This document shows, one piece after another, positions 1 through 47,153 of a stretch of DNA of 64,000 nt. Numbering within the stretch: the first letter of the stretch is position 1; the number at the start of each line of letters is the position of its first letter. Source of the DNA: Alphaproteobacteria bacterium (GTDB lineage Bacteria; Pseudomonadota; Alphaproteobacteria; UBA2966); the NCBI GenBank assembly GCA_965242505.1, contig OZ251449.1, positions 2,803,843-2,867,842 of the forward strand. Reading direction: 5' to 3'. Under the pieces are notes generated by a model. It had not been told where the DNA came from. It made no database searches and worked only from the letters and a program-made list of their open reading frames with translations. The translations under genes were made by a program, and so were the position numbers.

Positions 1-2404
1 GGCGCCGCCACAGCTCCTCGGCGATATGGGGCATCATGGGTCCGATCAGCCGGACCAGGGTCTCCAGGGCCTCCCGGAGCGCGGCGGCGGCGTCCGGCCG
101 TTCCTCTCCGTCCGGCGGCGTCCACGAACCCAGGACGTTGACGAACTCGTGGATCCGCGCCACCGCCTTGTTGAAGCGGAACGCCTCGATGTCGGCGCCG
201 ACCGCCGCGATCGTCCGGTGGGCGGCGCGGCGCAGCTCGCCGTCGGGGCCGTCCCCGGCGGCCGCCGGCCGGCCGCTCCCGGCCTCGCCGGCGTGGACGC
301 CCAGTTCCCGCGCCAGCCGCCACACCCGCTGCGTGAAGCGCCAGGCGCCCGCCACCCCGGCGTCCGTCCATTCCAGGTCGCGCTCCGGCGGACTGTCGGA
401 CAGCACGAACCAGCGGGCCGTATCGGCGCCGTACCGGTCGATGATGGAGCCCGGGTCGACGACGTTCTTCCTGGACTTGCTCATCGACTCCGAGCGGCCG
501 ACCTCGACGGGCGCGCCCGACTCCGCGAGCGCCGCCCGGCCGTCCGGGCTCCGCGCCACCTCCTCGGGATAGCGCCAGTTCCCGTCCCCGTCCCGATAGG
601 TCTCGTGGCAGACCATCCCCTGGGTGAACAGCCCCGCGAAGGGCTCGTCGAACCCGAGGTGGCCGCGGTCCTTCATGGCCCGCATGAAGAACCGGGAATA
701 CAGCAGGTGGAGGATGGCGTGCTCGATCCCGCCGACGTACTGGTCCACCGGCATCCAGTAGCGGATCGCGTCCCGGTCGACGGGGGCGTCGGCGCGCGGG
801 CAGCAGAAGCGGGCGAAGTACCACGACGAGTCCACGAAGGTGTCGAGGGTGTCCGTTTCGCGCAGGGCCGGCTTCCCGCACGCCGGACAGTCCACCCGCC
901 GCCAGGCCATGTGGTCGTCGAGGGGGTTTCCGGGCCTGTCGAAGGTGACGTCCTCCGGCAGGGCGACGGGCAGGTCCTGCTCGGGGACCGGCACGACGCC
1001 GCAGCCGTCGCAGTGGATCATGGGGATCGGGCAGCCCCAGTACCGCTGCCGGGACACTCCCCAGTCGCGGAGGCGGTAGTTGACCGCGCGCCGCCCCCTG
1101 CCCGCCCGTTCGAGCCTTTCGGCGACCGCCTCCTTCGCCGCGTCCACGGAGAGGCCGTCGAGGAACCGGGAATTGGCGAGGACGGCGCCGTCGGTCTCGA
1201 GGAAGGCCTCGCCGCCGACCCGGAACCGGGCGGCGTCCGCATCCTTGGGGACGACGACCGGCAGCACGGGAAGCCCGTACGCGCGCGCGAAGTCCAGGTC
1301 CCGCTGGTCGTGCGCGGGACAGCCGAAGACGGCCCCCGAGCCGTACTCCATCAGCACGAAGTTGGCGATGTAGACGGGCAGCTCCCTGCCTTCGTCGAAG
1401 GGGTGGCGGACCCGGAGGCCGGTGTCGCAGCCCTTCTTCTCGGCGGTCTCGACGGCTTCCTCGCTGGTTCCCATGCGGCGGCACTCGGCGACGAACGCCG
1501 CCGCCTCGGGGTCGCGCTCCGCCGCCTCGGAGGCGAGCGGGTGGTCGGCCGACAGGGCCATGAAGCTGGCGCCGAAGATGGTGTCGTGCCGCGTCGTGTA
1601 GACGTCGAGGACGTCGTCCCGCCCGACGATCTCGAAGGACATGGCGAGGCCCTCGGAACGGCCGATCCAGTTCCGCTGCATGGTCCGCACCCGGGGCGGC
1701 CAGCGGTCGAGCGCGTCGAGGGCCTCCAGGAGCTCGTCGGCGAACGCGGTGATCCTGAAGAACCACTGGCTCAGCCTGCGCTTCTCGACGGGAGCGCCGG
1801 ACCGCCAGCCGCGGCCGTCGATCACCTGCTCGTTCGCCAGCACCGTGCGGTCCGCCGGGTCCCAGTTGACCCACGATTCGCCCCGGTACGCGAGGCCGGC
1901 CTCGTACATGTCGAGGAACAGCTTCTGCTGGTGGGCGTAGTATCCGGGATGGCAGGTGGCCAGCTCCCGCGACCAGTCGAGCGACAGCCCCATCGCCTTG
2001 AGCTCGTCGCGCATGGTGGCGATGTTGCCGTAGGTCCACGCCGCCGGATGGACGTTCTGCTCCCGCGCCGCGTTCTCGGCGGGCAGGCCGAAGGCGTCCC
2101 AGCCCATGGGGTGCAGGACGCTGAACCCCATGGCCCGCTTGTGCCGCGCGACCACGTCCCCCAGCGTGTAGTTGCGGACGTGTCCCATGTGGATGCGCCC
2201 GGAGGGGTACGGAAACATCTCGAGGACGTAGTACTTCGGCTTGCCGGGGTCTTCGCGGGCCTCGAACGTGCGGCGCTCGGCCCAGATCCGTTGCCACTTC
2301 GCCTCCGTCCGCCGGGCGTCGTACCGGTCGCCGCGGGGGGCGGGCGGGTCCGCGGCGCCGGTCGGCGGGGCGTCGGCGGCCGCGGTCTCGGGGAGCGCCG
2401 TCAC
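1..2404 (-). CDS. leuS: Leucyl-tRNA synthetase, N-terminal about 800 aa; gene continues beyond the left window edge
   Basis: Reverse-strand translation gives [56 protein letters not shown] and the (E)SMSKS(R)KN motif, all class I LeuS signatures. It is absent from the ORF track because no stop falls in the window. The GTG start near 2404 gives [28 protein letters not shown]. The 1029-aa plus-strand ORF at 26..3115 is its antisense shadow. Confidence 0.9.
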
Positions 2405-2460
2405 GGGGAGGAGCGTTCCGCGGGCGCCGTCACGCCGGCGTCCTCCGCTCCGCCGTCCGC

Positions 2461-2523
2461 CTCCGGCGAAACCTCCGCCGTTCGCCTCCGGCGAAACCTC
2501 CGCCGTTCGCCTCCGGCGAAACC
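2461..2523. repeat. 25-bp direct tandem repeat (2.5 copies), ctccggcgaaacctccgccgttcgc, between the leuS start and the downstream small gene
   Basis: Read directly in sequence at 2461-2485, 2486-2510 and a partial copy at 2511-2523. Confidence 0.6.
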
Positions 2524-2526
2524 CGT

Positions 2527-2925
2527 TCACGCCGCGTCCTTCCGGCCGGTCACGGCGTCGCGCAGGCCGTCGATCAGGCCTTCGAGCCGGGCCATGCGCT
2601 GCTCGACGCCACCCATGCGCTGTTCGAGGCCGCCCATCCGTTGTTCGAGGCCATCCATGCGCCGCTCGAGACCGTCCATGCGCTGTTCGAGGCCGTCCAT
2701 GCGCCGCTCGAGGCCGTCGATGCGCTGGCCGAGGCCGTCGATGCGTTGCTCAAGGCCGTCGATGCGCTGGCCGAGGCGCTGTTCGAGACCGCCCATGCGC
2801 TGCTCGACGCCGTCGATGCGCTGGCCGAGGCGCTGCTCGATCTTGCCCACGTCCGCCCGCAGCCAGGCGAAGACGGCGACGATCAGGGTCGCCAGACCGA
2901 GGAGGCCGCCCAGTTCCGGGGTCAT
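2527..2925 (-). CDS. Small membrane-anchored protein (132 aa): N-terminal TM helix followed by about 12 degenerate octad repeats (Q/R)R(M/I)DGLEQ
   Basis: ORF starts [22 protein letters not shown] (hydrophobic helix) then runs ([11 protein letters not shown] / LEQRMDG) repeats. GGAG sits about 12 nt upstream of the ATG. An underlying 24-nt DNA periodicity is visible at 2590-2860. It follows the lipoprotein gene on the same strand. Confidence 0.5.
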
Positions 2926-2934
2926 GGCGGTTCC

Positions 2935-3486
2935 CTACTCCGGCGGAACGGCGTTCGCGCGCAGCTCGCGCGCGCGGGTGAGGATCGCGTTCTCCAGGTC
3001 CGTCGCCGTTCCGTCGCCCACGCCGCCGTCGACCCAGCGGTCGCCCGCCGCGAGCCGCTGCCGGAACACCGACACCTTCACGCCGTCCGCGCGCAGCTGG
3101 CGGTCGAGGATGTAGACCGTCATCTTGAAGCGTTCCGAGGGCGTCTCGGGAGGCGAGTACCAGTCGGTGATGATCACGCCGCCGAAGGGGTCGGCGGACG
3201 AGAGCGGCATGAACGAGACGGTGTCGAGCGAGGCCCGCCAGAGGAACGCGTTGACGCCGATGCCCCCGCCGTCCGACGACCGGGCGTCCGGGCCCCCGAA
3301 GAGGGGGATCCCGCCGCCGAACAGCCCGCCACCGTCGTCACCCTCGAACCGGGCCTTCCTGGGATCGTTGTCGACGTCGCCGACCTCCTCGATCGTCGGG
3401 TTCCCGCATCCGGCGGCGAGCAGCAGGACGCCGCCGAGAACGCCGGCCAGCAGGGGCCGCCCGCGCCGGGGTCCGAACGTCTTCAT
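2935..3486 (-). CDS. DUF3576-like lipoprotein (183 aa) with lipobox LAAGC
   Basis: Internal start MKTFGPRRGRPLLAGVLGGVLLLAAGCGNPT is a SPII signal with a Cys lipobox. GGGAGAcgccc-ATG is the RBS. The C-terminal GIGVNAFLWRASLDTVSFMPLSSADPFGGVIITDWY matches the DUF3576 family as I remember it. The longer N-terminal extension of the track ORF is Arg-rich and unlikely to be translated. Confidence 0.7.
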   Translation of the reverse strand: MKTFGPRRGRPLLAGVLGGVLLLAAGCGNPTIEEVGDVDNDPRKARFEGDDGGGLFGGGIPLFGGPDARSSDGGGIGVNAFLWRASLDTVSFMPLSSADPFGGVIITDWYSPPETPSERFKMTVYILDRQLRADGVKVSVFRQRLAAGDRWVDGGVGDGTATDLENAILTRARELRANAVPPE

Positions 3487-3737
3487 GGGCGTCTCCCGTC
3501 CCTGGGGTTCCGAATCCGTATCCGTCCACGGACGGCCTGCGGCGGCCGGAGCGCGCCGACGGCCAGGCCGGCGTCGGCGCGTTCTTCCCCGCGGGGCCCG
3601 ATTGTGCGACGGCCGGCCCCGGCGCGCAACCGGCTTGTCCTCGTTCAGGACATTCGCATCGTTCCCGCCCGACCCCCGCCCCCGACGCGACCCCCCCTTC
3701 CGTAGCGCGCGCGGCCGGCGGGGGGATGGGGCGCGGG

Positions 3738-4199
3738 TCAACCGGCGGCGGGGAGCAGCAGCTTGAGCAGGCCGAAGGTCAAGCCGGCGTTGGCGAGCAC
3801 GATCCCGACGGCGATGCCGACGAAGCGGACCGTCAACCGCGTTTCGAGGTTGGCCACGTCGGTCTTGAGTTCGGCCTTCGCTTCAGCGAGCTCGGCCTTC
3901 ACTTCGGCGAGCTCGGCCTTCGTCGCCATCCTGTTCTCGACGCGGGCGATGTCGGCTTTGACGGCGGCGAGTCCATTGTCCAGGTCGGTCCTGAGCGCGG
4001 TGAGGCCGGTATCGAGGTCCACCTTGGCGGCGGCGAGTCCCTTGTCGAGGTCGTCCTTGGTGGCGACGCCTTCCGCCACGGCGTCGCGGACGGCCTCGGC
4101 GTGCGCTTCGGCCTGGGCCTCGTCCACGCCGGCCGCCTTGAGGCGACGCGCGTAGGACAGCGTGTCGAAGCCGGTGGCGTGCGTGATCTTCATGGCCAT
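3738..4199 (-). CDS. DUF1640-family coiled-coil protein with C-terminal TM anchor (paralog 1, about 153 aa)
   Basis: MAMKITHATGFDTLSYARRLKAAGVDEAQAEAHAEAVRDAV... followed by K/E-rich coiled coil and the C-terminal hydrophobic RFVGIAVGIVLANAGLTFGLLKLL. The start was set at the MAMK motif shared with the paralog. Confidence 0.7.
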   Translation of the reverse strand: MAMKITHATGFDTLSYARRLKAAGVDEAQAEAHAEAVRDAVAEGVATKDDLDKGLAAAKVDLDTGLTALRTDLDNGLAAVKADIARVENRMATKAELAEVKAELAEAKAELKTDVANLETRLTVRFVGIAVGIVLANAGLTFGLLKLLLPAAG

Positions 4200-4615
4200 G
4201 GGGCCGAGGCTACACCGTCGCGGGGCCGTCCGCAAGCGCGCGTCCATGCGGACCCCCCTCCCCCCTCGTGTTTCTCCCTCCCCCCTGCCAGGGGGGAGGA
4301 GTGTGGATGGTCAGGGGGGAGGAGTGCGCGGGGCGAGGGTCGTTCGGCGGGTTCGGCTGGCGGTCCGGGCCTCGCGCGCCGCCATGGCCTCCTCCTGGCG
4401 GCGGAGCCTCTCCTCCTCGTAGCGGCGTTCGTCTCGGCCTCGCGTTTCCGCCTCATGTCTTCGTTGAAGCGGTCCATCCCGCGGAGGTCACGGCAGATGC
4501 CGATGATGATGATGACGTAGACGGCGACGGCGGCGGCCGCGATCCAGACGCCGGCGGTCGAGATCCAGTGGATCGTGTGTTGCGCGGTGAGGATGGCCTG
4601 TTCGGGCTCGGTCAT
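4190..4615 (-). CDS. Small membrane protein (the first 70 aa or so are convincing); the C-terminal tail is read-through of the REP element
   Basis: AAGGGAGAcgccc-ATG RBS. MTEPEQAILTAQHTIHWISTAGVWIAAAAVAVYVIIIIGICRDL is a TM helix. Downstream residues (PPDHPHSSPLAGG) are a typical REP translation, so the true stop and extent are uncertain. Confidence 0.4.
   Translation of the reverse strand: MTEPEQAILTAQHTIHWISTAGVWIAAAAVAVYVIIIIGICRDLRGMDRFNEDMRRKREAETNAATRRRGSAARRRPWRRARPGPPAEPAERPSPRALLPPDHPHSSPLAGGREKHEGGGGSAWTRACGRPRDGVASAPWP
4255..4340. repeat. REP-like palindromic elements (type A core CTCCCCCCTG(C/T)CAGGGGGGAG), 2 copies
   Basis: ctcccccctgccaggggggaggagtgtggatggtcaggggggaggagtgcgcgggg. 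The same family recurs across the window. Confidence 0.7.
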
Positions 4616-4654
4616 GGGCGTCTCCCTTCAGGCCAGGATGCTGCCGGATTGCCG

Positions 4655-4712
4655 CGAAGGCGGGAACCCCCCTCCCGGCCTCCCCCGCCAGGGGGGAGGG
4701 GCGCGTCGGGGC
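4655..4712. repeat. REP-like element (type A) immediately 3' of DUF1640 paralog 2
   Basis: cccctcccggcctcccccgccaggggggaggggcgcgtcggggcgcggg. Confidence 0.65.
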
Positions 4713-4717
4713 GCGGG

Positions 4718-5218
4718 TCAACCGGCGGCGGGGGGCAGCAGCTTGAGCAGGCCGAACGCCAAGCCGGCGTTGGCGAGCACGATCCCGACGGCGATGCCGA
4801 CGAAGCGGACCGTCAACCGCGTTTCGAGATTGGCCACGTCGGTCTTCGTCGCCATCTTGTCCTCGATGCGTTCGACCCTGCCTTCGAGGCGGGCGACGTC
4901 GGCCTTGAGCTCGGCCTTCACTTCGGCGAGCTCGGCCTTCGTCGCCATCCTGTCCTCGACGCGGGCGATATCGGCCCTGGTGGCGGCGAGTCCATTGTCC
5001 AGGTCGGTCCTGAGCGCGGTGAGGCCGGTATCGAGGTCCACCTTGGCGGCGGCGAGTCCCTTGTCGAGGTCGTCCTTGGTGGCGACGCCTTCCGTCACGG
5101 CGTCGCGGACGGCCTCGGCGTGCGCTTCGGCCTGGGCCTCGTCCACGCCGGCCGCCTTGAGGCGGCGCGCGTAGGTCAGCGTATCGAAGCCGGGAACGGG
5201 CGCGATCTTCATGGCCAT
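4718..5218 (-). CDS. DUF1640-family coiled-coil protein with C-terminal TM anchor (paralog 2, about 166 aa)
   Basis: MAMKIAPVPGFDTLTYARRLKAAGVDEAQAEAHAEAVRDAVTEGV... The N-terminal 70 aa and C-terminal 40 aa are almost identical to paralog 1 at both DNA and protein level, and the central coiled coil carries an extra repeat. The upstream part of the track ORF reads into the IS. Confidence 0.7.
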   Translation of the reverse strand: MAMKIAPVPGFDTLTYARRLKAAGVDEAQAEAHAEAVRDAVTEGVATKDDLDKGLAAAKVDLDTGLTALRTDLDNGLAATRADIARVEDRMATKAELAEVKAELKADVARLEGRVERIEDKMATKTDVANLETRLTVRFVGIAVGIVLANAGLAFGLLKLLPPAAG

Positions 5219-5271
5219 GGGGGCGAAGCTACACCGTCGCGGGGCTGTCCGCAAGCGCGCATCCATTGAGC

Positions 5272-6128
5272 AACCGGATAGATGGGTAACACTATAGACC
5301 GGATACATGGGTAACAGTGTTCCCGGTCTGTCCCGCTTCCGTGCGGCCCGGCCGGGCCGCACGGAAGCGGTGTAGCTTCTTCGACCTCCGATCGATGATC
5401 CCGAGGTCGACATCCGCGAAGCGGACGATCCAGTCGCCCCCGTCAGTCTCGGCCACGCCCACAGGCTCACCCCTCAGCGTCTCGCTGACGAAGACCAAGT
5501 CGCCGCCCCACTTGATGGAGCCATCGGTGCGGACCCGGCGCATCGCGTGCTCGGCATCGTACCAGGGCTCCTCCAGGCGCTCGGGATGACGCCGCGACGA
5601 CGACCGGTAGAACGCCGCAGGCGGCCTCTGCCCCAAGGCCTCATGCGGACGATGGACGTTGAAGTCCTGGCGGAAGCGGTCGAAGCGGGCCTGTTGCGCG
5701 TCCGCCGTCGCCGCCGGCGGCGTCGCGGTCTCGGCCTTCAACGTCCGATGCATCCGCTCATGCCTCCCGTTCTGCTGCGGCTGACCCCGCGCAATCCGCT
5801 CCACCGCGATCCCGGCCTTGATCCATTCCACCGACAGACGCGACAGACCCCCAGCCCCCGGACCGGCGAACGGCGCCCCGTTGTCCGAACGGATGGCCTC
5901 GGGAACCCCGTAGCGCCGGAACACCCGCCCCACCGCCGCCCCCACCGCAGCGGTCTGCGGCGGGACGATGACGCACGCCAACAGAAAGCGGCTGTAGGCG
6001 TCGGTGATCGTCAGCGGATCGCAGCGGACGCCGTCGCGGGTGCGAAACCACCCCTTGAAGTCGATGCACCACACGTCGTTGGGAGCCGCCACAGAGCGGA
6101 ACGGACGACACGTGCGTGGCCGAAACAT
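5272..6128 (-). mobile_element. 5'-truncated IS481-family IS copy (one terminal IR plus the C-terminal 278 aa of the transposase), inverted relative to the intact copy at about 14424-15748
   Basis: The ORF 5292..6128(-) product is 95% or more identical to residues about 134-411 of the transposase at 14491..15726 (CIDFKGWFRTRDGVRCDPLTITDAYSRF... DDE/rve domain). The terminal sequence gagcaaccggatagatgggtaacactatagaccggatacatgggtaacag at 5272-5320 is the reverse complement of the intact copy's right end. The N-terminal HTH part is missing. Confidence 0.85.
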
Positions 6129-6849
6129 GGGGCGGGGCCAGTTTCGGAAAATCCAGAACTGGATCGGCGCCCCGGGCTCCCCGATAGGAAAGGCCGATTT
6201 CGTCCCGCCGGCCCCGGAGACCCTGATGCCCGAACTGGATGCGTGGGAGAAGTACTATCACGCGGAATCCCCCGACGGACTCGTCCAAATGGCCGTGGTC
6301 CACGCTCAGTTCGAAATCATCCATCCCTTCCTGGACGGCAACGGGCGTATCGGACGCATTCTGATACCGCTGTTTCTCGCGGAGAAGAAACTCCTTTCGC
6401 GCCCGATGTTCTATCTATCGTCGTACCTTGAACGACACAGGGACGAATACGTCTCGGGGCTGCGCGCCCTCAGCCGACGGAACGATGGCTGGAACCTCTG
6501 GATAGGCTTCTTTCTGCGCGCGGTCGAGGAGGAAGCGCGAGCGAACGCCGACAAGGCGAAAGCGATCATCGACCTCTACGCGGACCTGAAGGAGAGGGTG
6601 CTGGCTCTCACGCACTCACAATACGCCATCCCGCTCCTCGACCAGATGTTCGAGCGCCCGTTGTTCCGGAGCGCGATGCTTCGGTTTCCCGACGGTCTCG
6701 CGCCGAGTCGGCAGGCCGTGTCCCATCTGCTTCGTCAGTTGCGCAGCAGCGGCATCCTGAAGGTCCTGCGAGAAGGTCGGGGAAGACGCGCCCAAATCCT
6801 GGTCCTGGCCGAGCTCGTCAACATCTGCGAGGGCGAGGAGATCGTTTAG
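6129..6849 (+). pseudogene. Fic/DOC family protein (AMPylase-type), 5'-truncated at the junction with the IS fragment
   Basis: Canonical Fic motif HPFLDGNGRIGR in ...AVVHAQFEIIHPFLDGNGRIGRILIPLFL. The homologous reading frame begins abruptly at about 6128 (..QNWIGAPGSPIGKADFVPP..) with no N-terminal about 100 aa and no own start. Upstream residues of the track ORF are antisense IS sequence. Confidence 0.7.
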
Positions 6850-6892
6850 GCCGCATTTCTCATACCGGCAGGGATCGGAGATTGCGCGGCGT

Positions 6893-6960
6893 TGCGGGGC
6901 CGCGGACCCCCCTCCCGACCTCCCCCCTGCCAGGGGGGAGGAGTGCGCGGGGCGGGGGTC
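6893..6960. repeat. REP-like element (type A)
   Basis: cccccctcccgacctcccccctgccaggggggaggagtgcgcggggcggggg. Confidence 0.7.
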
Positions 6961-7010
6961 GTTCGGCGGCGGGGGAGCAGCAGCTTGAGCAGGCCGAACG
7001 CCAAGCCGCC
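6961..7010 (-). pseudogene. About 45-bp remnant of a DUF1640 gene 3' end (third, fragmentary copy)
   Basis: ggcggcgggggagcagcagcttgagcaggccgaacgccaagccg nearly matches the 3' ends of the paralogs at 3738-3790 and 4718-4770 (encoding ..GLAFGLLKLLPPAAG). As with those paralogs, it sits right beside a REP. Confidence 0.55.
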
Positions 7011-7191
7011 TGCGCCGGGTGTGGCGAAAAAGCCACATTCCGTGTCGTTCTCGCCCGCGGCGCGCGGTTCCGCCGCCGAACCCGCGGATTCCCGTTGATT
7101 CGGCGGAACGGCGCGTGCTTACGTTGAAGGGCGCAAAGACGCGTCGTATGGTTTTTGGCCAAACAACCCTGTTGGTTACGGAGGATCACGA

Positions 7192-8289
7192 ATGAAAACG
7201 CACAAGAGCAGGCTTCTCGCCACCAGCGCTCTGGCGGGCGCCGGGATGGCGCTTCCGGGCGTCGCGGCGGCCGAGATGATGAAGCCGGCCCTCTCGGTGG
7301 GCGGCTACCTCTGGCACGACACCCACTTCGCCAGCCAGGACATGGACGAGAACAAGAGCTCCGTCCTGCACCATGTCGACTCCGAGGTCCACTTCAAGCT
7401 GGCCGGCGAGCTCGACAACGGCCTCAAGATCGGCGGGCGCATCGAGCTCGAGAGCCAGACCGGCGGCGACCAGATCGACGAGACCTGGCTCGACCTTTCG
7501 GGCGCGTGGGGGATGCTCAGGTTCGGGAACAAGAACTCCGGGCGCTACGTCCACAGCTGGTCGGCGACGGGCCCGAACGTGTCCCACGGCGTCACCTCGG
7601 GCGTGACGACGGAATGGCTGGTTCTCCCTGAGGGTGTCGGCGCTGGCCTCTTCTTCCGCAAGCCGCTCGGCTCGGCCCACCCCGACGTCTCGAACGACGA
7701 CCCGGCCCTCACCTACTTCACGCCGCGCTTCAACGGCTTCCAGATCTCGGTGACCCACCGCCCCGAAATCCAGAACACGGGCGGCAAGAACATCGGGACG
7801 AGCGGGTCGGACGACACGGCGAACTACACCAACGCGCTCGACGGCTCGGTCCAGTACTCCGGCGACGTGGGCGGCATGAAGGTCGCCCTCGTGCTCGGCG
7901 CGGGCTCGGCCGGCGGTCCGGACGGCGCGGAGGACTACCAGGTCGTCAACGGCGGCGCCAAGGTCACCGCCAGCGGCTTCAGCTTCGGCGGCCACATGGC
8001 CGACGTGGAAGACGACATGAACAACGCCACCGGCACGGCGTACAGCGTCGGCGCGAGCTACGGGCAGGGCCCGTGGGCGGTGAGCGCGACGTTCCACGAT
8101 GGCGAGGTCGACGGCACCGTCGCCGACCCCGACAGCAGCGAGTTGTCGGTGTGGGCCCTGGGCACGAAATACACCCTCGGTCCGGGCGTGCGCCTCCTGG
8201 CGTCGTACCAGAACGCGGAGGTGACCTCGGAGCTCGGCGGCAGCAACGAGGGTTCGGCATTCACCGCGGGCGTCGCGGTCAACTTCTGA
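7192..8289 (+). CDS. Outer-membrane porin (alphaproteobacterial general porin type), 365 aa
   Basis: GGAGG RBS 7 nt upstream. Signal peptide MKTHKSRLLATSALAGAGMALPGVAAA. Gly/Ser/Thr-rich amphipathic beta-strand composition and a C-terminal ...AGVAVNF ending in Phe. The strong hairpin terminator follows. Confidence 0.8.
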   Translation: MKTHKSRLLATSALAGAGMALPGVAAAEMMKPALSVGGYLWHDTHFASQDMDENKSSVLHHVDSEVHFKLAGELDNGLKIGGRIELESQTGGDQIDETWLDLSGAWGMLRFGNKNSGRYVHSWSATGPNVSHGVTSGVTTEWLVLPEGVGAGLFFRKPLGSAHPDVSNDDPALTYFTPRFNGFQISVTHRPEIQNTGGKNIGTSGSDDTANYTNALDGSVQYSGDVGGMKVALVLGAGSAGGPDGAEDYQVVNGGAKVTASGFSFGGHMADVEDDMNNATGTAYSVGASYGQGPWAVSATFHDGEVDGTVADPDSSELSVWALGTKYTLGPGVRLLASYQNAEVTSELGGSNEGSAFTAGVAVNF

Positions 8290-8291
8290 CC

Positions 8292-8347
8292 CGGCTTCCG
8301 GCGGAAGCCGCCAGGGGCGGGGGGCCATCCCCCGCCCCTTTTCTTTG
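8292..8347 (+). terminator. Rho-independent terminator of the porin gene
   Basis: Hairpin cggcttccg-g-cggaagccg, then ggggcgggggg-ccat-cccccgcccc followed by ttttctttg. Confidence 0.65.
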
Positions 8348-8496
8348 CCGCGCCGGCGCGGGCCGCCGTCCGGTCCACCGGCGGGCGCGACCGAATGGCA
8401 CCGTCGTATCCGCGGGGCTTGGCGCGGCGCGCGGGCCGCGGTAGTCTCCGGACCGGTGGAGATGGGCGAGACCTGCATTTCCCGGAAGAGTCCCTG

Positions 8497-8760
8497 ATGC
8501 CGACATATCTCATCGCCTTGAATGCGCCGGATTCCGCGGTGTGGAAACGAGTCGAGTCGGTTTGGCCCGACGACCATTTCCTTCTCACGGATTGCCTGGC
8601 ATTCGTGTCCGAGGATGATCCCAACCTTCTTACGCAGGACATCGCCGAAAACCTGGGGATGACCGCGGAGGGGAACGTTCTCGGCCTGGTGACGGAGGTG
8701 AAAGGCCTGGCGGGACGCAACTCCACGTCGTTTGCCGAGTGGTTGAGTAAACGCTCATGA
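8497..8760 (+). CDS. Small acidic hypothetical protein (87 aa); first gene of a low-GC two-gene cassette
   Basis: MPTYLIALNAPDSAVWKRVESVWPDDHFLL... GGAAGAG lies upstream. Local GC is about 55-58% against about 70% for the flanks. The stop overlaps the next start (ATGA). Confidence 0.5.
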   Translation: MPTYLIALNAPDSAVWKRVESVWPDDHFLLTDCLAFVSEDDPNLLTQDIAENLGMTAEGNVLGLVTEVKGLAGRNSTSFAEWLSKRS

Positions 8761-9071
8761 GCGACCGCAGCGAAAACGTGGTGGATCTGGAAAAGAATCC
8801 CAGGAATCTCCAAGGGTCAGGCAGTGGCGGCGGGAACGGAAACCTCACACGGCACAGGCTGAACGACCTGGAACGCCGCATGGAGAAGCTGGAAAGCAAG
8901 GTGGATGATCTGATCGGTCTTTGCGCCAGGATCGACGAGAAACTGAATGAAGTCGCGAGCAAGAGTTACGTCTTGCGGATCCTGTGCGTAACCGTAGTGG
9001 TAACCATAGGGGGTTCACTCGCGACCGTCATCGTCCATGCCATCATGAGAACCTTGGTCCCTGTTTCCTGA
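8757..9071 (+). CDS. Tail-anchored coiled-coil membrane protein (104 aa; N-terminal coiled coil and C-terminal TM, XhlA/holin-accessory-like architecture)
   Basis: ..LTRHRLNDLERRMEKLESKVDDLIGLCARIDEKLNEVASKSYVLRILCVTVVVTIGGSLATVIVHAIM. Same low-GC islet, translationally coupled to the upstream gene. The family assignment is architectural only. Confidence 0.45.
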   Translation: MSDRSENVVDLEKNPRNLQGSGSGGGNGNLTRHRLNDLERRMEKLESKVDDLIGLCARIDEKLNEVASKSYVLRILCVTVVVTIGGSLATVIVHAIMRTLVPVS

Positions 9072-9258
9072 ACCCGTTCATCCATGAAAGCCCGCCGGGG
9101 TGGAGGATTTTCGCGGCGCTCCCGACCGGAACGTCATGGCGGCGGTTCCCCGGCCGGCGTCGGCGTCGGCGGGCGCGATCATGGTGCCGGCGCGGGCCGA
9201 AACGGCTTCCCGTTCGCGCGGAAATCCGGTAGCGTCCCGGCCTGAAGGGAGAGCCGCC

Positions 9259-9630
9259 ATGGACGAATACCAGGCCGCCACGCTTGCGATCCGGACCTAC
9301 GCCCTCTGGGCCGCCTACGGACAGGTCGCCGCCACCCTCGTGATCGGCAGCGGCCAGATCGCCGTCGTCTTGTACGGCATCCGCGCCATGATCCGCGCCA
9401 ACAGGGAACGCGCCGTCATCCTCGACCAACAGCATCAGGCCGACGACAAGCGCCACGAGGAGGCCATGGCCGAGGGGGCCCGCCGCCACGAGGAGGCCAT
9501 GGCGGCGCTCGCCGAACTGGTCCGGGACGGCCGGCGCCAGACCGCCGCCCTCGACGAATCGATCCGGGCCAGCCAACGCCAGACCGCGGCCCTCGACGAA
9601 CTGCTCCGCCGCTCCGCGCCCGCCGAGTGA
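9259..9630 (+). CDS. Small membrane protein (123 aa): N-terminal TM helix plus a cytoplasmic coiled coil with internal duplications (HEEAMA x2, RQTAALDE x2)
   Basis: AAGGGAGAgccgcc-ATG RBS. MDEYQAATLAIRTYALWAAYGQVAATLVIGSGQIAVVLYGIRAMI... The upstream part of the track ORF has no RBS. Confidence 0.5.
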   Translation: MDEYQAATLAIRTYALWAAYGQVAATLVIGSGQIAVVLYGIRAMIRANRERAVILDQQHQADDKRHEEAMAEGARRHEEAMAALAELVRDGRRQTAALDESIRASQRQTAALDELLRRSAPAE

Positions 9631-9654
9631 CGCTCCGAAGCGAAGGCGGGGGCG

Positions 9655-9720
9655 GTCCGCCCCCCTCCCGACCTCCCCCCTGTTAGGGGGAGGAGTATTG
9701 GGTGGTCAGGGGGGAGAGGC
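9655..9720. repeat. REP-like element (type A variant, ctcccccctgttagggggaggag)
   Basis: cccccctcccgacctcccccctgttagggggaggagtattgggtggtcaggggggagagg. Confidence 0.6.
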
Positions 9721-9746
9721 GTCGGGGAGGAGAGCGCGGGGGGCGT

Positions 9747-11003
9747 TCAGGTGTTCATCGAGTCGAAGAAGTCGGAGTTGTTCTTCGTCTGCTTGAGCTT
9801 GTCGAGCAGGAACTCCATGGCGTCCGTAATTCCCATCGGCATCAGGATGCGCCGCAACACCCACATCTTCGAGAGCGCCGCCTTGTCGACGAGCAGCTCC
9901 TCCTTGCGGGTGCCGGACTTGGTGACGTCCATCGCCGGCCACGTCCGCTTGTCGGAGAGCTTGCGGTCCAGGATGATCTCGGAATTCCCCGTCCCCTTGA
10001 ACTCCTCGAAGATGACCTCGTCCATCCGGCTGCCGGTGTCGACCAGCGCGGTGGCGACGATGGTCAGCGAGCCGCCCTGCTCGATGTTGCGGGCCGCGCC
10101 GAAGAACCGCTTCGGCCGTTGCAGGGCGTTGGCGTCCACGCCGCCGGTCAACACCTTGCCCGACGAGGGAACGACCGTGTTGTAGGCGCGGGCCAGACGG
10201 GTGATCGAATCCAGCAGGATCACCACGTCCCGCTTGTGCTCGACCAGACGCTTGGCCTTGGAGATCACCATCTCCGTGACCTGCACGTGCCGGGACGCCG
10301 GCTCGTCGAAGGTCGAGCTGATCACCTCGCCGTCGACCGACCGCTGCATGTCGGTCACCTCCTCGGGCCGCTCGTCTATCAGGAGGACGATGAGATAGAC
10401 CTCCGGATGGTTGGCGGTGATCGAGTGGGCGATGTTCTGCAACATCATCGTCTTGCCCGTCCGGGGCGGCGCCACGATGAGCGCCCGCTGCCCCTTCCCC
10501 AGCGGCGCGATCAGGTCGATCACCCGCGAGCTCATGTCCTGGCCCGCGGGATCTCCGGTCTCCAGGTTGACCTTCTCCTCCGGATACAGCGGCGTGAGAT
10601 TGTCGAAGTTGACCTTCTGCCGACCCTTCTCCGGGGCCTCGAAGTTGACGTCGTTGACCTTCAGCAGCGCGAAGTAACGCTCGCCGTCCTTCGGAGCCCT
10701 GATGGGCCCCGCCACCGTGTCTCCCGTCCGCAGGGCGAAACGCCGGATCTGGCTGGGCGAGACGTAGATGTCGTCGGGGCCGGGAAGGTAGTTGGCCTCC
10801 GGCGACCGGAGGAACCCGAAACCGTCCTGCAGGATCTCGAGCACCCCGCCTCCCGAGATCTCCTCGTCCTTGTCCGCGAGCTGCTTGAGGATCGCGAACA
10901 TCATGTCCTGCGTCCGCATCGCGCTCGCGTTCTCGACCTCGAGCTCCTCCGCGAACGCGAGGAGATCGGTGGGCGACTTCTTCTTCAGTTCCTGTAGATG
11001 CAT
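9747..11003 (-). CDS. rho: Transcription termination factor Rho (418 aa)
   Basis: [41 protein letters not shown] (N-terminal domain), Walker [13 protein letters not shown], and the C-terminus ...DFFDSMNT. Start was taken at MHLQ; the first 68 aa of the track ORF are upstream read-through. Confidence 0.95.
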
Positions 11004-11239
11004 GGCCAGCCTATTCGGACTCGACGGTCGCGCGCGAGGCCTCGGGTTCGATGACAGGATACGCGTCGATCGATGCCGGGACGGGCGGATGTCTGAGAGA
11101 TTCGGGGCGGGAGCGGATTGCCCAGCCATCCCGCCGAAGATCGGCCCGACAGGGTTAACCGAAGACGACGCGGGAGTCAAAAGGAAAATTCGGCCCGCGT
11201 TTTTCATGTCGGCGCTGGCGGAGAATCGAGGAGCGCGGC

Positions 11240-11440
11240 GTTGCGGGACCCCCCTCCCGACCTCCCCCCTGCCAGGGGGGAGGAGTATCAGTGGGGCTCC
11301 CCCCTGTCATGGGGGAGGAGTATGAATGGCCAGGGGGAGGAGCGCCGACGGCTCCTCCCGTCCTCCTCGTTCTCCCTCTCCCTGGCAGGGGGAGGGTCGG
11401 GGTGGGGGTCGCGCCAGGGGGGAGGAGCATGGATGGCTCC
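11240..11440. repeat. Cluster of REP-like elements (type A x3 and type B ccctccccctgccagggggaggg) in the rho upstream / hemJ downstream spacer
   Basis: ctcccccctgccaggggggaggagtatcagtggggctcccccctgtcatgggggaggagtatgaatggccagggggagg... ccctggcagggggagggtcggggtgggggtcgcgccaggggggagg. Confidence 0.7.
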
Positions 11441-11441
11441 G

Positions 11442-11888
11442 TCACCACGGTTTGACGACGACGACGACGACGGTCGCGATCAGGAGCAGCGTGGGGACCT
11501 CGTTCGCCGCGCGGTAGAAGTTCCGCGAACGGCGGTTGGCGTCGTCCGCGAAGCGCCTCCGCCACCGGGCGAAAAGCCCGTGGACGGCCGTCATGGCGGC
11601 GATCAGCGCCGCCTTCGCCCAGGGCCACGCGTCCGACCAGTCGACGACCCCCGGAGTCACGGCCAGCGCGCCGCCGAACAGGAAAGCGCAGAGCATCGCC
11701 GGGTTCATGACGCCCCGCAGCAGCCTGCGCTCCATCGTCTTGAAGGTCTCCGACTGCGCGGACCCCGCCTCCGCGTCGCAGTGATAGACGTAGAGGCGCG
11801 GCAGGTAGAGCATGCCCGCCATCCACGCGATCACCGAAACGACGTGGAGGGCCTTGATCCACAGGTAGGCGCCGGCGAGCCAGGTCAC
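11442..11888 (-). CDS. hemJ: Protoporphyrinogen IX oxidase HemJ (148 aa)
   Basis: ..AYLWIKALHVVSVIAWMAGMLYLPRLYVYH.. is the HemJ signature. The GTG start overlaps the hemH stop (GTGA). It is the third gene of the hemE-hemH-hemJ unit. Confidence 0.8.
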   Translation of the reverse strand: MTWLAGAYLWIKALHVVSVIAWMAGMLYLPRLYVYHCDAEAGSAQSETFKTMERRLLRGVMNPAMLCAFLFGGALAVTPGVVDWSDAWPWAKAALIAAMTAVHGLFARWRRRFADDANRRSRNFYRAANEVPTLLLIATVVVVVVKPW

Positions 11889-12964
11889 GCGCCGCCCCCC
11901 TCGCCGGCCGCGGCCATGGCGCAGCGGACGAAGGCCCCGGGGCACGTCCGGCCGCCGGTCGCCGACCGGATCCGGCGGACCGGACCGGCCGCGCCGGCGC
12001 CGTCCTCCGGCGGGCCGGCGGCCAGCGCGGCCAGCCCCTCCATGAACTTCGGGTGGGTCCGGACCGCGGCCGCCCGTTCGTAGGCCGGCGCGCCGGCCGA
12101 TTCGGCCAGCCGCCGATACTGGATATCGAGCTCCACGAGAGTCTCCGAATGTTCGGAGACGAACGAGACGGGGACGACGACGATCGGCAGGCCCTCCGCC
12201 CCGGCGCGCTCGGTCTCCGCCGCCGTGTCCGGTCCGATCCATCGCAGCGGACCCACGCGGCTCTGGTAGCACACGACCCAGGACCCCGCCGCGACGTTCG
12301 CCTTCCCGGCCACCGCCGCCGCCGTCCGCTCGACCTGCCACCGGTACGGGTCGCCGCCGGCGACGACCCGCCGCGGCAGGCCGTGCGCCGAGAACAGGAC
12401 GCGCGGTTCCCGCCCGCCGCTCGCCAGGGCGCACCGCGACATCGCTTCCGCAAGGGTCTCCGCCTGGGCCGAGACGAAGCCCTCGTCGGTCGGGTAGCAG
12501 CACACGGCCGTCGTGGGCGCGTCGATCCCCGCGGCCCGCGCGGCCCGCCGCCACGCCTCCAGCGCCGACGCCGTCGTCGTCGTCGAGAACTGCGGGTAGA
12601 GGGGCAGCAGGCGCACCCGGTCGGGCGCGTAGCGGGCCACGTCGCGCGCCGCCTCCTCGCTGAAGGGACGCCAGTGGCGCATCGCGACGAAGACGCGGTA
12701 CTCCCCGCGCCCGTCCAGAACGCCCTGCAACGCCTGCGCCTGCGCCCGGGTCTCCTTGAGGATCGGCGACGCGCCGCCCAGCTCGGCGTAGATCCGGGCC
12801 GCCTCGGGCGCCCTGCGCCTCGCGATCCACCGCGCGAGCGGAACCCGCAGGGGACCCGGCATCCGCAGGATCGCGGGATCCGCGAAGAGGTTGGCCAGGA
12901 AGGGGCGCACGGCCGCAGGACCGTCCGGCCCGCCCAGATTGAACAGGACCACCGCCGTCTTCAA
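11885..12964 (-). CDS. hemH: Ferrochelatase (359 aa)
   Basis: (M)KTAVVLFNLGGPDGPAAVRPFLANLFADPAIL..., ...YQSRVGPLRWIGPDT... The probable TTG start overlaps the hemE stop (TTGA), and there is no in-frame ATG or GTG nearby. Confidence 0.85.
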   Translation of the reverse strand: MKTAVVLFNLGGPDGPAAVRPFLANLFADPAILRMPGPLRVPLARWIARRRAPEAARIYAELGGASPILKETRAQAQALQGVLDGRGEYRVFVAMRHWRPFSEEAARDVARYAPDRVRLLPLYPQFSTTTTASALEAWRRAARAAGIDAPTTAVCCYPTDEGFVSAQAETLAEAMSRCALASGGREPRVLFSAHGLPRRVVAGGDPYRWQVERTAAAVAGKANVAAGSWVVCYQSRVGPLRWIGPDTAAETERAGAEGLPIVVVPVSFVSEHSETLVELDIQYRRLAESAGAPAYERAAAVRTHPKFMEGLAALAAGPPEDGAGAAGPVRRIRSATGGRTCPGAFVRCAMAAAGEGGGA

Positions 12965-44495: not shown

Positions 44496-47153
44496 CTATC
44501 GAGCGCTGTCGAGCAGCCGCCTGAAATGCGACCCGTCCCGGTCGAGCTCCTCGAACGCGCCCTCCTCCACGATCCTTCCCGACCGCATCACGAGCACGCG
44601 ATCGAACCCCTTCGCCAGATCCGCCTTGTGCAGCGCCCAGATCAACCCGCGACCGGCGAACTCTTCAAGCAGGTTGCCCATTATCAGCCCCTGACTCGCG
44701 GTGTCCAGCGCGGCCGTCGCCTCCGCGAGGAACAGTATGTCGGGCCGCTTCAGAACGCTGCGCGCGATCGCGAGTTTCTGCCGCTGTCCCGATGACAGCC
44801 GCGAACCGGATACGCCGACGTCATACCCCAATCCGACCTCGACGATCGTGTTCCTGAGGCCGAGTTCCGAGATGACCTCCGTGATCAGCGCGCCGACGCG
44901 GTCCGCGGCCTCGGGCCGTCCGTAGGCGATCTTCCCGAAAAGGATGTTGTCCTGAATGCTCGCCGTGCTCGCGTAGGCGTCGGGGTCCAGGAATTCGACG
45001 GAGGTTCCGATTTCCTCGGGAAGGTTCCTGGCGAACGCCTCGCGGGCGTCCAGCAGCCTGGCCTGAACGTCGTCGTCGATCATGCCCAGGCGGTGCCGCG
45101 CGGGAACGAGCTTGAACGGCAGCGACATGATCGGGGCGCGCTCCTCGACCGACAGGTCCTCCAGCCTCTCTCGGTCGACTCGCGTGAGCCACTGCTGGAG
45201 CTCGCCCAGCTCCTCCGCCGATACGAAGCTGTACCGCTGGAACAGTTCGTGGTCGGGTGGCACGTCGGCGAAAATTTCGACCATGGTGGCGGCCGTGTCG
45301 TACCCGATCCGCAGGATGGCCTCCGTCAGGCCGACCCTTTTCAGAATTTCCAGGACGTACGGATCCTCGCCGAGCCGGTTCATGTCGAAGGCGTCTCCGA
45401 CGACGTTGCCGAACAGAAGGTTCTCCCCGACGGTCGCGTTGGCGTTGTAGGCGGACCGGTCGAACGCTTCGACCAGGTCCGCCATGCCCTCCTCGTCGAC
45501 CAGGCGTTCACGGAATGCCGCGCGGGCGCGAAGAATCGCGTCCGCCGTGTCGCCGTGCGTCTCGGGATCGATGGTTCCCCGGAGTCCCAGCCGGTACACC
45601 TCGTCGTCCAGACCCACCATTTCGAGGACGCGAAGCCCCTGCGCCCGGAGGGCTTCGGGCGTGTCGGCGCCGGCGGACTCCATGTCCATCCAGTCCGCCT
45701 TGACGTCGAGGGTCGTGTTGCCGGCGGCCCGCGCCTCGTTCTCGTGCCAGCGGCGTTGGCGCATGGCGTCGTCGTCGTACTCGAACTCGCGCACGGGACG
45801 GTGCTTCAGGCCGTAGAACAGGTTGGAGCCCAGAGAACCGGCGAAGACGTACCCCTGCTGGCCTACGTAGGCGAGCCGACGCCCCGTGATCGCCTCCGGC
45901 AGACCCGCGAGCTCCAGTCCGCCGATCGAGACGCCTCCTCGCGTCGGATACAGGAGCCGGCTCAGCAGCTGCGCCAGATCGGTCGCGCCGCTTCCGGACT
46001 CGCCGACGACGGCGACTCGCGACGGCATCGACAGCCTCAGCGAAACACGGTCGACGACGTTCTCCCCGACTTCGTCGGTCAGCGTCAGGTTGGCGGTCGC
46101 CAGGTCGCCGGTCAGCGGATCGATGGACTCCGGTTCCTCCGTCTGCACGCTCTCGTCCGGCATCCCGACCGGGTCGAACTGACTGACGACCTGTTCGTAC
46201 TTGATCTTCGCGTCCTCCCGCCTCTGGTAGAACGCGAGGAGTTCCTTCCAGGGCGCCCCCAGGTCCTTGTGCGCCGCGATCGCGGCGACCAGCGTCCCCA
46301 TTTCCAGAGATCCGACGATGACGAGGTAACCGCCCAACGAATAGAAGAAGAACGGTCCGAGCTGCTGGATGAAGTTGTTGATGAACTTGATGACGAACTT
46401 CTGGCGGTAGATGCGATACCGCACATGGAAGATTCGTCCCAGCCGATCGGAGAAATCGGCCAGCGCGAACCGCGACGTGTCGTGGATGTGGACCTCGGGA
46501 GCTCCCTGGACCGTCTCGCCGATACGGTCCGACAGGCGGCGCACCAGACGCACCCTTTCCTTGCCCAAGGCGTTCACGCGCTTTTGCATGCGCGGGATCA
46601 GGTACAGCTGGATGGGGTAGAGCGCGACGGCCGCCGCCGCCATGATCCAGTTCTGGTAGAACAGGAACGCCAGGATGACGATGAGCGTGCCTCCCTGGAA
46701 CACCGGCAGCGCGAAGGCCTCGCCGATGAATCCGCCCAGAGGCTCCACCTCCGAGGTGATCATCGGAATGATCTCGCCCTGGGACACGTTCCTGAAGGTC
46801 GGCTGCGGGAAGCGGAGCACCCGGCCGAACAGTTGATACCGCAGCCGACGCAGCATCCGCTCGCCGGTCAGGCCCTGGTAGACGTTGATGTAGTATTTGA
46901 ATGCCTGGTTTATCAGGACGAGGATCAGAAAGACCGCGCACAGGAGGAACAGGTAGCCGGTCCGGTCGAACTCGACCCCCAGAAGGCCGACGGGGAAGTC
47001 TTCCGGGTTCCCCTGGATCGCGCCGTTTATGATGCGCTTCGGCAGCTCGTAGAAGGCGTACAGGAAGGGGAACGACAGGGCGGCGAGGGCGGTGAGCCAG
47101 ACCTGTTGCCGCAGACTGTGGCGAATCAGGTATCTGTAGACGGTTTTTTCCAT
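44496..47153 (-). CDS. ABC-type protein with N-terminal 6-TM permease domain and a long, non-canonical nucleotide-binding domain (885 aa)
   Basis: TMD about residues 1-330. The Walker A-like VAVVGESGSGATDL lacks the invariant Lys (GSGAT rather than GKS/T). The signature LSSGQRQKLAIARSV is present. The Walker B-like ILFLAEATAALD has Asp replaced by Ala. About 400 aa are inserted between Walker A and the signature motif. The start was taken at MEKTVYRYLIRH; the first 40 aa of the track ORF are Arg-rich. Confidence 0.75.
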   Translation of the reverse strand: MEKTVYRYLIRHSLRQQVWLTALAALSFPFLYAFYELPKRIINGAIQGNPEDFPVGLLGVEFDRTGYLFLLCAVFLILVLINQAFKYYINVYQGLTGERMLRRLRYQLFGRVLRFPQPTFRNVSQGEIIPMITSEVEPLGGFIGEAFALPVFQGGTLIVILAFLFYQNWIMAAAAVALYPIQLYLIPRMQKRVNALGKERVRLVRRLSDRIGETVQGAPEVHIHDTSRFALADFSDRLGRIFHVRYRIYRQKFVIKFINNFIQQLGPFFFYSLGGYLVIVGSLEMGTLVAAIAAHKDLGAPWKELLAFYQRREDAKIKYEQVVSQFDPVGMPDESVQTEEPESIDPLTGDLATANLTLTDEVGENVVDRVSLRLSMPSRVAVVGESGSGATDLAQLLSRLLYPTRGGVSIGGLELAGLPEAITGRRLAYVGQQGYVFAGSLGSNLFYGLKHRPVREFEYDDDAMRQRRWHENEARAAGNTTLDVKADWMDMESAGADTPEALRAQGLRVLEMVGLDDEVYRLGLRGTIDPETHGDTADAILRARAAFRERLVDEEGMADLVEAFDRSAYNANATVGENLLFGNVVGDAFDMNRLGEDPYVLEILKRVGLTEAILRIGYDTAATMVEIFADVPPDHELFQRYSFVSAEELGELQQWLTRVDRERLEDLSVEERAPIMSLPFKLVPARHRLGMIDDDVQARLLDAREAFARNLPEEIGTSVEFLDPDAYASTASIQDNILFGKIAYGRPEAADRVGALITEVISELGLRNTIVEVGLGYDVGVSGSRLSSGQRQKLAIARSVLKRPDILFLAEATAALDTASQGLIMGNLLEEFAGRGLIWALHKADLAKGFDRVLVMRSGRIVEEGAFEELDRDGSHFRRLLDSAR

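Follow-up and report, generated by a model that had tools for sequence, protein, structure and literature searches.

The 64-kb window, the whole stretch of DNA analysed here, comes from a Defluviicoccus-like host, an important wastewater organism, and carries three small genes between an outer-membrane porin gene and rho. We call these genes A, B and C. Our subject is the pair A-B, whose two reading frames overlap at an ATGA and which lies on foreign DNA inside the remains of a native gene; C is itself native. The features on which the argument rests are the following, with coordinates and strand.

7192-8289 (+), Porin_4 outer-membrane porin (PF13609, E 2.7e-39), a native syntenic anchor outside the low-GC islet
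8313-8350 (+), intrinsic terminator of the porin, a 12-bp GC-rich stem (8313-8339) followed by TTTTCTTT
8374-8389 (−), left scar, the 3' tail (last codons and stop) of a minus-strand C-family gene, motif CGCGCCCGCCGGGTGA
8391-9134 (+), foreign low-GC segment carrying A-B, GC 0.55-0.64 against 0.70
8419-8447 (+), candidate promoter TTGGCG-N17-TAGTCT, read by eye and uncalled by a consensus scan
8497-8760 (+), gene A, acidic cytoplasmic protein of 87 aa, pI 4.3, net charge -7
8757-9071 (+), gene B, tail-anchored protein of 104 aa, its start overlapping the stop of A (ATGA, 8757-8760)
9135-9151 (−), right scar, the ribosome-binding site (RBS) and ATG head of a minus-strand C-family gene, GGGGAACCGCCGCCATG
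9163-9178 (−), second fragment resembling the tail of a C gene, repeating 8379-8390 directly over 12 nt and the 3' end of C (9615-9626) in inverted form
9259-9630 (+), gene C, native member of an expanded family, 123 aa, hydrophobic segment at about residues 23-41

Base composition sets A and B apart from everything around them. The overall GC content of the window is 0.705; in 200-nt segments it drops from 0.755 (8300-8499) to 0.55-0.59 (8500-9099), and from 9000 on the values are 0.67-0.71 again. Over the whole window, GC in sliding 650-bp segments has a mean of 0.704 with a standard deviation of 0.036, the minimum of 0.577 starts at position 8476, and 0.08% of the segments reach a GC as low as that of 8450-9100. 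An earlier note on this DNA, made from the sequence alone, had described a sharp drop directly after the porin terminator, and this is indeed the lowest 650-bp stretch of the window, with further segments among the lowest at about 46000-46500 and 5500-6000. In the GC and codon-usage comparison that the note had proposed, gene A (GC 0.583; GC at third codon positions, GC3, 0.727) and gene B (GC 0.556, GC3 0.705) deviate from the host, while C (GC 0.718, GC3 0.911) resembles host genes such as the porin (GC3 0.945). The dip is limited to A and B. The low-GC islet of three genes in the earlier description therefore stands as a dip but contains two genes, C having host composition.

The description of A and B as an overlap-coupled pair of an 87-aa acidic and a 104-aa tail-anchored protein holds in full (pI of A 4.3; transmembrane (TM) segment of B at residues 75-93). 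Hydropathy of B peaks at 2.47 over residues 75-93 of 104, and its layout comprises a Gly/Asn-rich N-terminus, a short coiled coil with a heptad-like stretch at 32-67, an ASKSYVL motif and the C-terminal TM helix. In close relatives the second hexamer of the candidate promoter reads TATTCT or TACTCT. A terminator after B, considered at 9087-9115, was rejected for the window, where folding is no better than that of shuffled sequence; the hairpin is degenerate here (z +1.75) and strong in the related metagenome contig L005 (z -3.75).

Both proteins looked like orphans in a word-indexed search, which gave two clusters for A and four for B. For A this was overturned by an exhaustive HMMER search, with 131 representative clusters at E≤1e-3 and 29 at E≤1e-10, the clusters being defined at 50% identity; the existence of distant homologues also rules out de novo gene birth. 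Nearly all matches are 82-95 aa long and align over their full length, with the consensus MxxYxIxLNxPxxxxWxxxxxxWPxxHxIxxDxxAFV...LT..IA...G...GxV...G.....LxEWLxK. Neither A nor B itself has a significant match in Pfam, NCBIfam, PADLOC or PHROGs, 61 aligned members of the A family gave no consistent match in Pfam, PHROGs or PADLOC, and A-family sequences have no sequence-level match to chains of the PDB. Column frequencies over these 61 members show W16, W23, W82, G54, G63 and G73 to be invariant, and the best-kept polar residues are H27 (82%), D32 (70%), T46 (77%) and E81 (89%). AlphaFold2 reached a predicted local distance difference test (pLDDT) score of 48 for A from the single sequence and a confident fold with the 61-sequence alignment. 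According to this model, A shares the fold of Cas2, VapD and BPSL1038; membership of a nuclease subfamily lacks support.

Comparison with related genomes shows where the foreign DNA begins and ends. In the metagenome contigs L001-L006, the block 8371-9180 recurs at 89-92% identity with identical sharp edges. The gene order LeuS-LptE-DUF3576, variable region, porin is common to the window (bases 4-8368), L007/L008 and L017 at 81-92% nucleotide identity, the variable region being an array of C-family genes in L017 and L008. The window porin is orthologous to the porins of L008, L017 and L005 (81-86% nucleotide identity), and its terminator (fold energy -35.4 kcal/mol, z -3.2) is conserved in L017 and L008. 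Homology between the window and L017 ends at 8368, and L017 lacks A-B; at the orthologous site it has the porin terminator, about 40 nt further on the stop of a minus-strand C gene, and then a second C gene, also on the minus strand. The pair is not at the orthologous post-porin site in either of these two related Defluviicoccus-like genomes, L017 and L008, and profile searches with A and B gave no match in L007-L040 (about 400 kb from related genomes). The presence-absence comparison suggested in the earlier note thus finds synteny kept and the pair missing, so that A-B is lineage-specific rather than uniformly conserved among all relatives.

On either side of A-B lies a remnant of a C-family gene. 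The left one, CGCGCCCGCCGGGTGA, encodes ...APAG and a stop; it has two mismatches in the window, matches perfectly at the corresponding position of L001, L005 and L006, and also terminates array genes of L007. The right one, GGGGAACCGCCGCCATG, has its single occurrence in the window at 9135-9151, codes on into MTF and then diverges, and is found with at most two mismatches upstream of seven of the eight array genes of L007. The repeats formed by the additional fragment at 9163-9178 belong to repeat families D8 and I6, and the 12-nt direct repeat at 8379/9167 stems from C-gene tails and is not a clear target duplication. The insert itself has no mobility gene; an rve fragment (5292-6128) lies nearby and, in L017, a tyrosine integrase. 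An origin of A or B as antisense derivatives of a C gene was rejected, since tblastn of C finds nothing in 8400-9100 on either strand. The simplest reading of both scars is that the foreign DNA took the place of the interior of one native C-family copy, which makes the locus a clean case in which a native gene lost its interior to a foreign cassette and kept both ends as scars.

Outside this lineage, A and B occur together in distant genomes. We inspected seven independent contexts (the window lineage, L042, L043, L044, L045/46, L047 and L048-50), and in all seven the gene directly after A encodes a tail-anchored protein of the B type. In six of them (window, L042, L043, L045, L047 and L048) the start of B was read as an overlapping ATGA or GTGA, and the called coordinates of A and B overlap by 4 nt in L044; the B gene of L043 is frameshifted, on a contig of 4x coverage. 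Relatives of B begin with MSD; a stretch rich in Gly and Asn, RHRLNDLERRM or something close to it, a short coiled coil, the motif A(S/T)K and one C-terminal TM helix are likewise common to them. The pair is low in GC in every host examined, with A homologues at 0.40-0.51 in loci of 0.52-0.63. Neighbours of the distant pairs include DDE, IS1595, IS240, Mu-type and IS21 transposases; Fic and PIN/MazE genes lie near the pair in L045/46, with a tRNA gene immediately upstream of A in L045, and in L042 (6258-6926) a Y1/IS200-like transposase of the repetitive extragenic palindrome (REP)-associated type sits at the 3' end of the B homologue, the gene call being fused as 222 aa. A-B is a conserved, translationally coupled pair across distant hosts, usually beside mobile elements. 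Three A-family matches resemble fusions of A and B: P0221 has A at residues 1-72 ahead of a coiled coil, the sequence ATKADL and a TM helix; P0268 has A at 1-55, then a B-like coiled coil and a TM helix ending in GHLLIRTLSP; and P0220 has A followed by a TM helix and coiled-coil repeats.

Taken together, the deviant composition, the empty orthologous site, the bracketing by gene fragments and the homologues in transposon-rich regions of unrelated genomes support horizontal acquisition of A-B. The pair lies on about 0.75 kb of acquired foreign DNA (approximately 8391-9134) that is specific to this Defluviicoccus-like lineage. Horizontal acquisition, as the earlier note had suggested it for all three genes, is therefore upheld for A and B on the grounds of composition, empty site and scars and lacks support for C, because C has native composition and its family forms arrays beside the same porin in relatives; C is unrelated to the insert.

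Some further observations concern the distribution of the pair. Just upstream of A, a third small open reading frame (ORF) of 60-65 aa with the motif PE(E/D)(I/V)A(Q/R)AL is present at L042 5793-5990, where it ends 10 nt before A, and at L043 782-964, where it overlaps the start of A; protein P0203 is of the same kind. It is missing from the window and the other contexts and has no Pfam match. Among 72,556 plasmids, tblastn returned nothing for two relatives of A. L048-L050 were considered as separate mobile copies and turned out to be variants of one locus, a 1.8-kb insertion apart, which is silent on mobility; a match to a subset of A in a metagenome collection, L041, was spurious, covering 17 residues.

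Both A and B are under purifying selection. Their ORFs are intact in all seven related contigs, and the ratio of non-synonymous to synonymous substitution rates (dN/dS) against close relatives is 0.18-0.35 for A and 0.50-0.57 for B, with 0.78 for the porin. The lone indel in the coding region among relatives, of 12 nt, is in frame and falls within the TM helix of B.

For the function of this foreign insert in a C-family gene, we infer a membrane-tethered mobile module of the addiction or defence type, and we give the combined reading roughly an even chance. Among the possibilities raised earlier, that of a toxin/immunity-type set is the most plausible functional guess, on the basis of context. 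Two-gene toxin-antitoxin and abortive-infection modules with a small membrane toxin are likewise small, co-directional and translationally coupled; A-B shares with such modules the order of an acidic first and a hydrophobic second gene, as well as a patchy distribution, low GC and surroundings of transposase, Fic and PIN/MazE genes. In the proposed mechanism, A would attach to the part of B that lies in the cytoplasm, and the two would make up a single complex tethered to the membrane. B could form oligomers through its coiled coil and perturb the inner membrane. The acidic A, as the product of the first gene and in translational coupling with B, would restrain or gate it, so that the pair would behave as a selfish addiction- or defence-type module. 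In a more specific version, which we regard as unlikely, a non-catalytic A of the Cas2/VapD/BPSL1038 fold would act as sensor or gate of B as a tail-anchored, coiled-coil pore-former or membrane disruptor, the two constituting a new, widespread abortive-infection or addiction system on mobile DNA in which the Cas2-like fold would serve regulation and not nuclease activity. If the functional guess is true, an unannotated family of at least 131 clusters at 50% identity, for which Pfam, NCBIfam, PADLOC and PHROGs hold no model, joins the small membrane-acting addiction and defence modules, and the Cas2/VapD-like fold gains a non-nuclease role.

Several points weigh against this proposal. Neither A nor B matches known toxin, antitoxin or defence families (Pfam, NCBIfam, PADLOC), and A has no recognisable DNA-binding antitoxin domain; in these respects, and in its apparent fusions, A-B differs from toxin-antitoxin modules. 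Fusion of A to B is unusual for a toxin-antitoxin pair and fits a benign two-subunit membrane complex equally well, and the three fusions could themselves be assembly or frameshift artefacts. In L047, ordinary genes surround the pair (TonB-dependent receptors, arginase, Fur), and no mobile element lies closer than 4 kb. Third codon positions of B are not enriched in changes among close relatives (counts of 13, 9 and 12 at the three positions), which indicates modest constraint, and the view of genomic context covers seven contexts.

In view of the fusions and of the L047 context, the pair could also be a benign membrane complex, and the fold leaves some room for a nuclease role of A. An ordinary accessory pair for the envelope or for membrane stress, tied to outer-membrane genes and not selfish, would account for the position of A-B after a porin in the window and after two TonB-dependent receptor genes in L047, for fusions that suggest a stable complex and for purifying selection on both genes; it is improbable in view of the patchy distribution with sister species lacking the pair, the deviant GC in every host and the other five contexts, which are transposase-rich or tRNA-adjacent and hold no outer-membrane genes. 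There is a similarly small chance that A is an active small nuclease of the BPSL1038, Cas2 or VapD kind and the toxic or effector part, with B as its membrane anchor, immunity factor or regulator. According to its description (PMC10491678), BPSL1038 of Burkholderia pseudomallei (PDB 7vxr) is a Cas2/VapD-like, metal-independent endonuclease of double-stranded DNA with a D11(X20)SST site. Between it and A there is no detectable sequence similarity, and no PDB chain matches at the sequence level. When residues are matched by position in the fold, without a structure-based alignment, neither the D11(X20)SST motif nor the Cas2 aspartate at the end of beta-1 is conserved in the A family, which has no SST-like turn: position 9 is N in 52% and D in 15% of the 61 members, position 12 is N in 0.43 and D in 0.25, and the invariant Trp and Gly residues are structural. 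The strongly acidic character of A (net charge -7) and the very common occurrence of ferredoxin-like folds also speak against a nuclease. As a further difference, searching PMC10491678 by terms brought up no membrane-protein partner, whereas A is always paired with a tail-anchored protein in the contexts inspected. That the insert is a decaying, non-functional passenger whose ORFs persist because insertion was recent is less probable still. The non-coding flanks of the block are as variable as its genes (0.10-0.12 variable sites per nt), B lacks a third-position excess and the hairpin after B is degenerate in the window while strong in L005, all of which such decay would explain; against it stand the intact ORFs in seven of seven related contigs with a single, in-frame coding indel, dN/dS values below 1 and below that of the neighbouring porin, and conservation of the pair across distant genomes. 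Almost no probability attaches to a structural RNA or regulatory region, instead of protein genes, as the source of the GC dip: Rfam gives no match at E≤1 across 6800-11500, and the region codes for two proteins with distant homologues.

The earlier note had raised phage-related readings, likening the architecture of B to that of XhlA and holin-accessory proteins and naming the remnant of a phage lysis cassette as one example of what the locus might be. In architecture the likeness is real: like B, XhlA of PBSX is small (about 70-100 aa), has its coiled coil in the cytoplasmic N-terminal part and carries its only TM helix at the C-terminus. Weak profile matches also recur, with phrog_1193 ('hemolysin') matching B at E 4.5e-4 and relatives of B at 0.025 and 0.61, phrog_689 ('holin') matching the L047 relative at E 5.8e-4, further weak matches of relatives to phrog_6136 and phrog_6324, and scores of 12.4 and 13.3 bits on PF10779 (XhlA) for the relatives in L042 and L044. 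Every one of these lies under its curated threshold, which for PF10779 is a Pfam gathering threshold of 34.7 bits, and B itself has no match to PF10779 at E≤1. We take the PF10779-type matches of the B family as coiled-coil noise because a control, the unrelated plain heptad-repeat protein encoded at 2530-2934 (−) in the window, reaches 30 bits on the same profile. The defining feature of XhlA is membership of the xhlA-xhlB-xlyA lysis cassette, with holin XhlB and endolysin XlyA, in a prophage (PMC6834076). B has no such partner or prophage context: there is no holin, endolysin or phage structural gene adjacent to the pair in the window (porin, A, C, rho) or in any of the seven contexts, and its partner is instead a cytoplasmic alpha/beta protein, a kind not known in lysis cassettes. 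Searches of phage collections agree with this. Against 50,697 phage genomes (INPHARED), tblastn of A and B gave only matches of E≥5; the A family has no relative in PHROGs, one A subgroup has none among the viral contigs of IMG/VR, and A finds nothing better than E 0.048 among the predicted viral structures of BFVD. A literature search for XhlA together with toxin-antitoxin systems returned nothing relevant. Resemblance to XhlA therefore survives as architecture and not as family identity, and it is highly improbable that A-B is a lysis-cassette remnant with B as an XhlA-type holin accessory protein. We prefer to read the pair as an addiction- or defence-type module.

The native gene C belongs to a family with a history of its own at this site. 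As described earlier, it encodes a 123-aa protein with an N-terminal TM helix, an internal duplication (a perfect 20-nt repeat at 9451/9484 and a 42-nt repeat at 9502/9544) and a strong GGGAGA RBS, with GAAGGGAGAG placed 6 nt ahead of its ATG. Two further features adjoin it.

9204-9252 (+), leader of gene C including the GGGAGA RBS, 49 nt, 82% complementary to 4621-4669 (repeat I1)
9657-9697 (no strand assigned), REP-like palindrome (repeat families D4 and D5) in the interval from C to rho

The homologues of C number 136, without a recorded Pfam domain, and at least seven of them lie on the 3.67-Mb source contig; one member is named 'hypothetical protein [Defluviicoccus sp.]' in NCBI. Members of the family carry a TM helix near the N-terminus, then an invariant G-I-R-x-M and RHE(E/T)xM modules that vary in number, and they end in a conserved tail (ERTAP or LRR+AP). 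Positions without variation in alignment A1 are, in C numbering, G40, I41, R42, M44, R65, H66 and E68, and C matches a hidden Markov model built from this alignment at E 5e-48. Judging from the positively charged residues behind the TM helix, the topology would be N-out, C-in. Among GTDB species representatives, 33 C-family loci came up in a scan, related ones occurring in alphaproteobacterial metagenome-assembled genomes (MAGs) of 3.3-3.9 Mb.

Tandem arrays are characteristic of the family. There are eight copies in L007/L008 (L007 5165-8465, upstream of the orthologous porin), seven each in L009 and L014, six in L017 and five in L030; neighbouring paralogues are about 70 nt apart and differ in the number of RHEEAM-type modules. 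An array adjoins the same porin in at least five species, and one MAG of 3.55 Mb has about 23 copies over six loci. This is a lineage-specific family of small membrane-anchored coiled-coil proteins, with some two dozen copies per 3.5-Mb genome in porin-side arrays. The array genes of L017 and L007 each stand behind GCTATAAT, as read by eye, which suggests that each has its own promoter. A literature search for Defluviicoccus together with porin returned nothing relevant. A few members of the C family were also seen in gammaproteobacterial MAGs (L019, L026, L029, L035, L038 and L039), three of which are complete chromosomes of 5.1-5.4 Mb, and this presence in Gammaproteobacteria suggests transfer between classes.

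The leader and most of C lie, in the window, between 12-nt inverted repeats (9166-9177/9615-9626) that stem from tails of C genes, and in L001 and L002, C is opposite in orientation to A-B, with REP-like elements around it. The C segment may be invertible, with an intact reading frame either way, or a fixed rearrangement may separate the window from L001 and L002. In L001 (1075-1701 and 1837-1878), C appears as a possible tandem duplication of a unit made of REP-like element and C. A degraded second C-like gene is present in the window at 4190-4615 (−), with its leader at 4621-4669; a TM helix is followed by basic, frameshift-like sequence, a 40-nt stretch coding for RHEEAMAA matches at 88%, and there is a weak match to DUF6732 (E 0.0033).

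The site directly after the porin is a rearrangement-prone hotspot. In L017 a tyrosine integrase (10919-12106, −) lies beyond the two C genes; L007, which represents the same region as L008, has a DUF1902-like gene of 96 aa and an IS630 element after the porin (9986-11427); and L005 has that 96-aa gene ahead of A-B, with a duplicated porin 3' end and terminator around it (1592-1882 and 2054-2163). In L001-L006, REP-like elements border the A-B block on either side and also surround C. In the window, gene C and then rho follow downstream, and copies of the D4/D5 REP-like elements lie at 4262, 4664, 6904, 9657, 11246 and 11297; such GC-rich palindromes (CCCCTCCCGACCTCCCCCCTGCCAGGGGGGAGGAG) are dispersed between genes and also occur at 11365-11414.

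Upstream of the porin, a fragment of an rve-type integrase/transposase (5292-6128, −) overlaps the start of a Fic-domain gene (6004-6849, +; PF02661, E 2e-17). Both stand where related genomes hold the C-family array, and their occupancy of the array site suggests a second replacement, on the upstream side of the porin. Within 7 kb, this region has at least six small genes for membrane-anchored coiled-coil proteins. The protein encoded at 2530-2934 (−), between leuS and the DUF3576 gene, is anchored at its N-terminus and has about 12 heptad repeats of the EQRMDGL type; it scores 49.8 bits on DUF7310 (cutoff 40) and also matches dozens of coiled-coil families. Two paralogous tail-anchored coiled-coil genes, at 3738-4247 (−) and 4718-5230 (−), sit within direct repeats about 1 kb apart (3728-3866/4708-4846, 97%; 3888-4187/4907-5206, 95%) and score 31.7 and 30.1 bits on CCDC90-like/DUF1640 (PF07798; cutoff 33.5). 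This family has a tail-anchored coiled-coil layout like that of B, several relatives of B carry an 'ATK..' motif before the TM helix, and the two genes lie 3.5-5 kb upstream in the same window. A relationship of B to DUF1640 was nevertheless rejected, as BLASTP of B against the DUF1640-like protein of the window gave E 0.67 and one B relative alone touches PF07798, at E 0.64.

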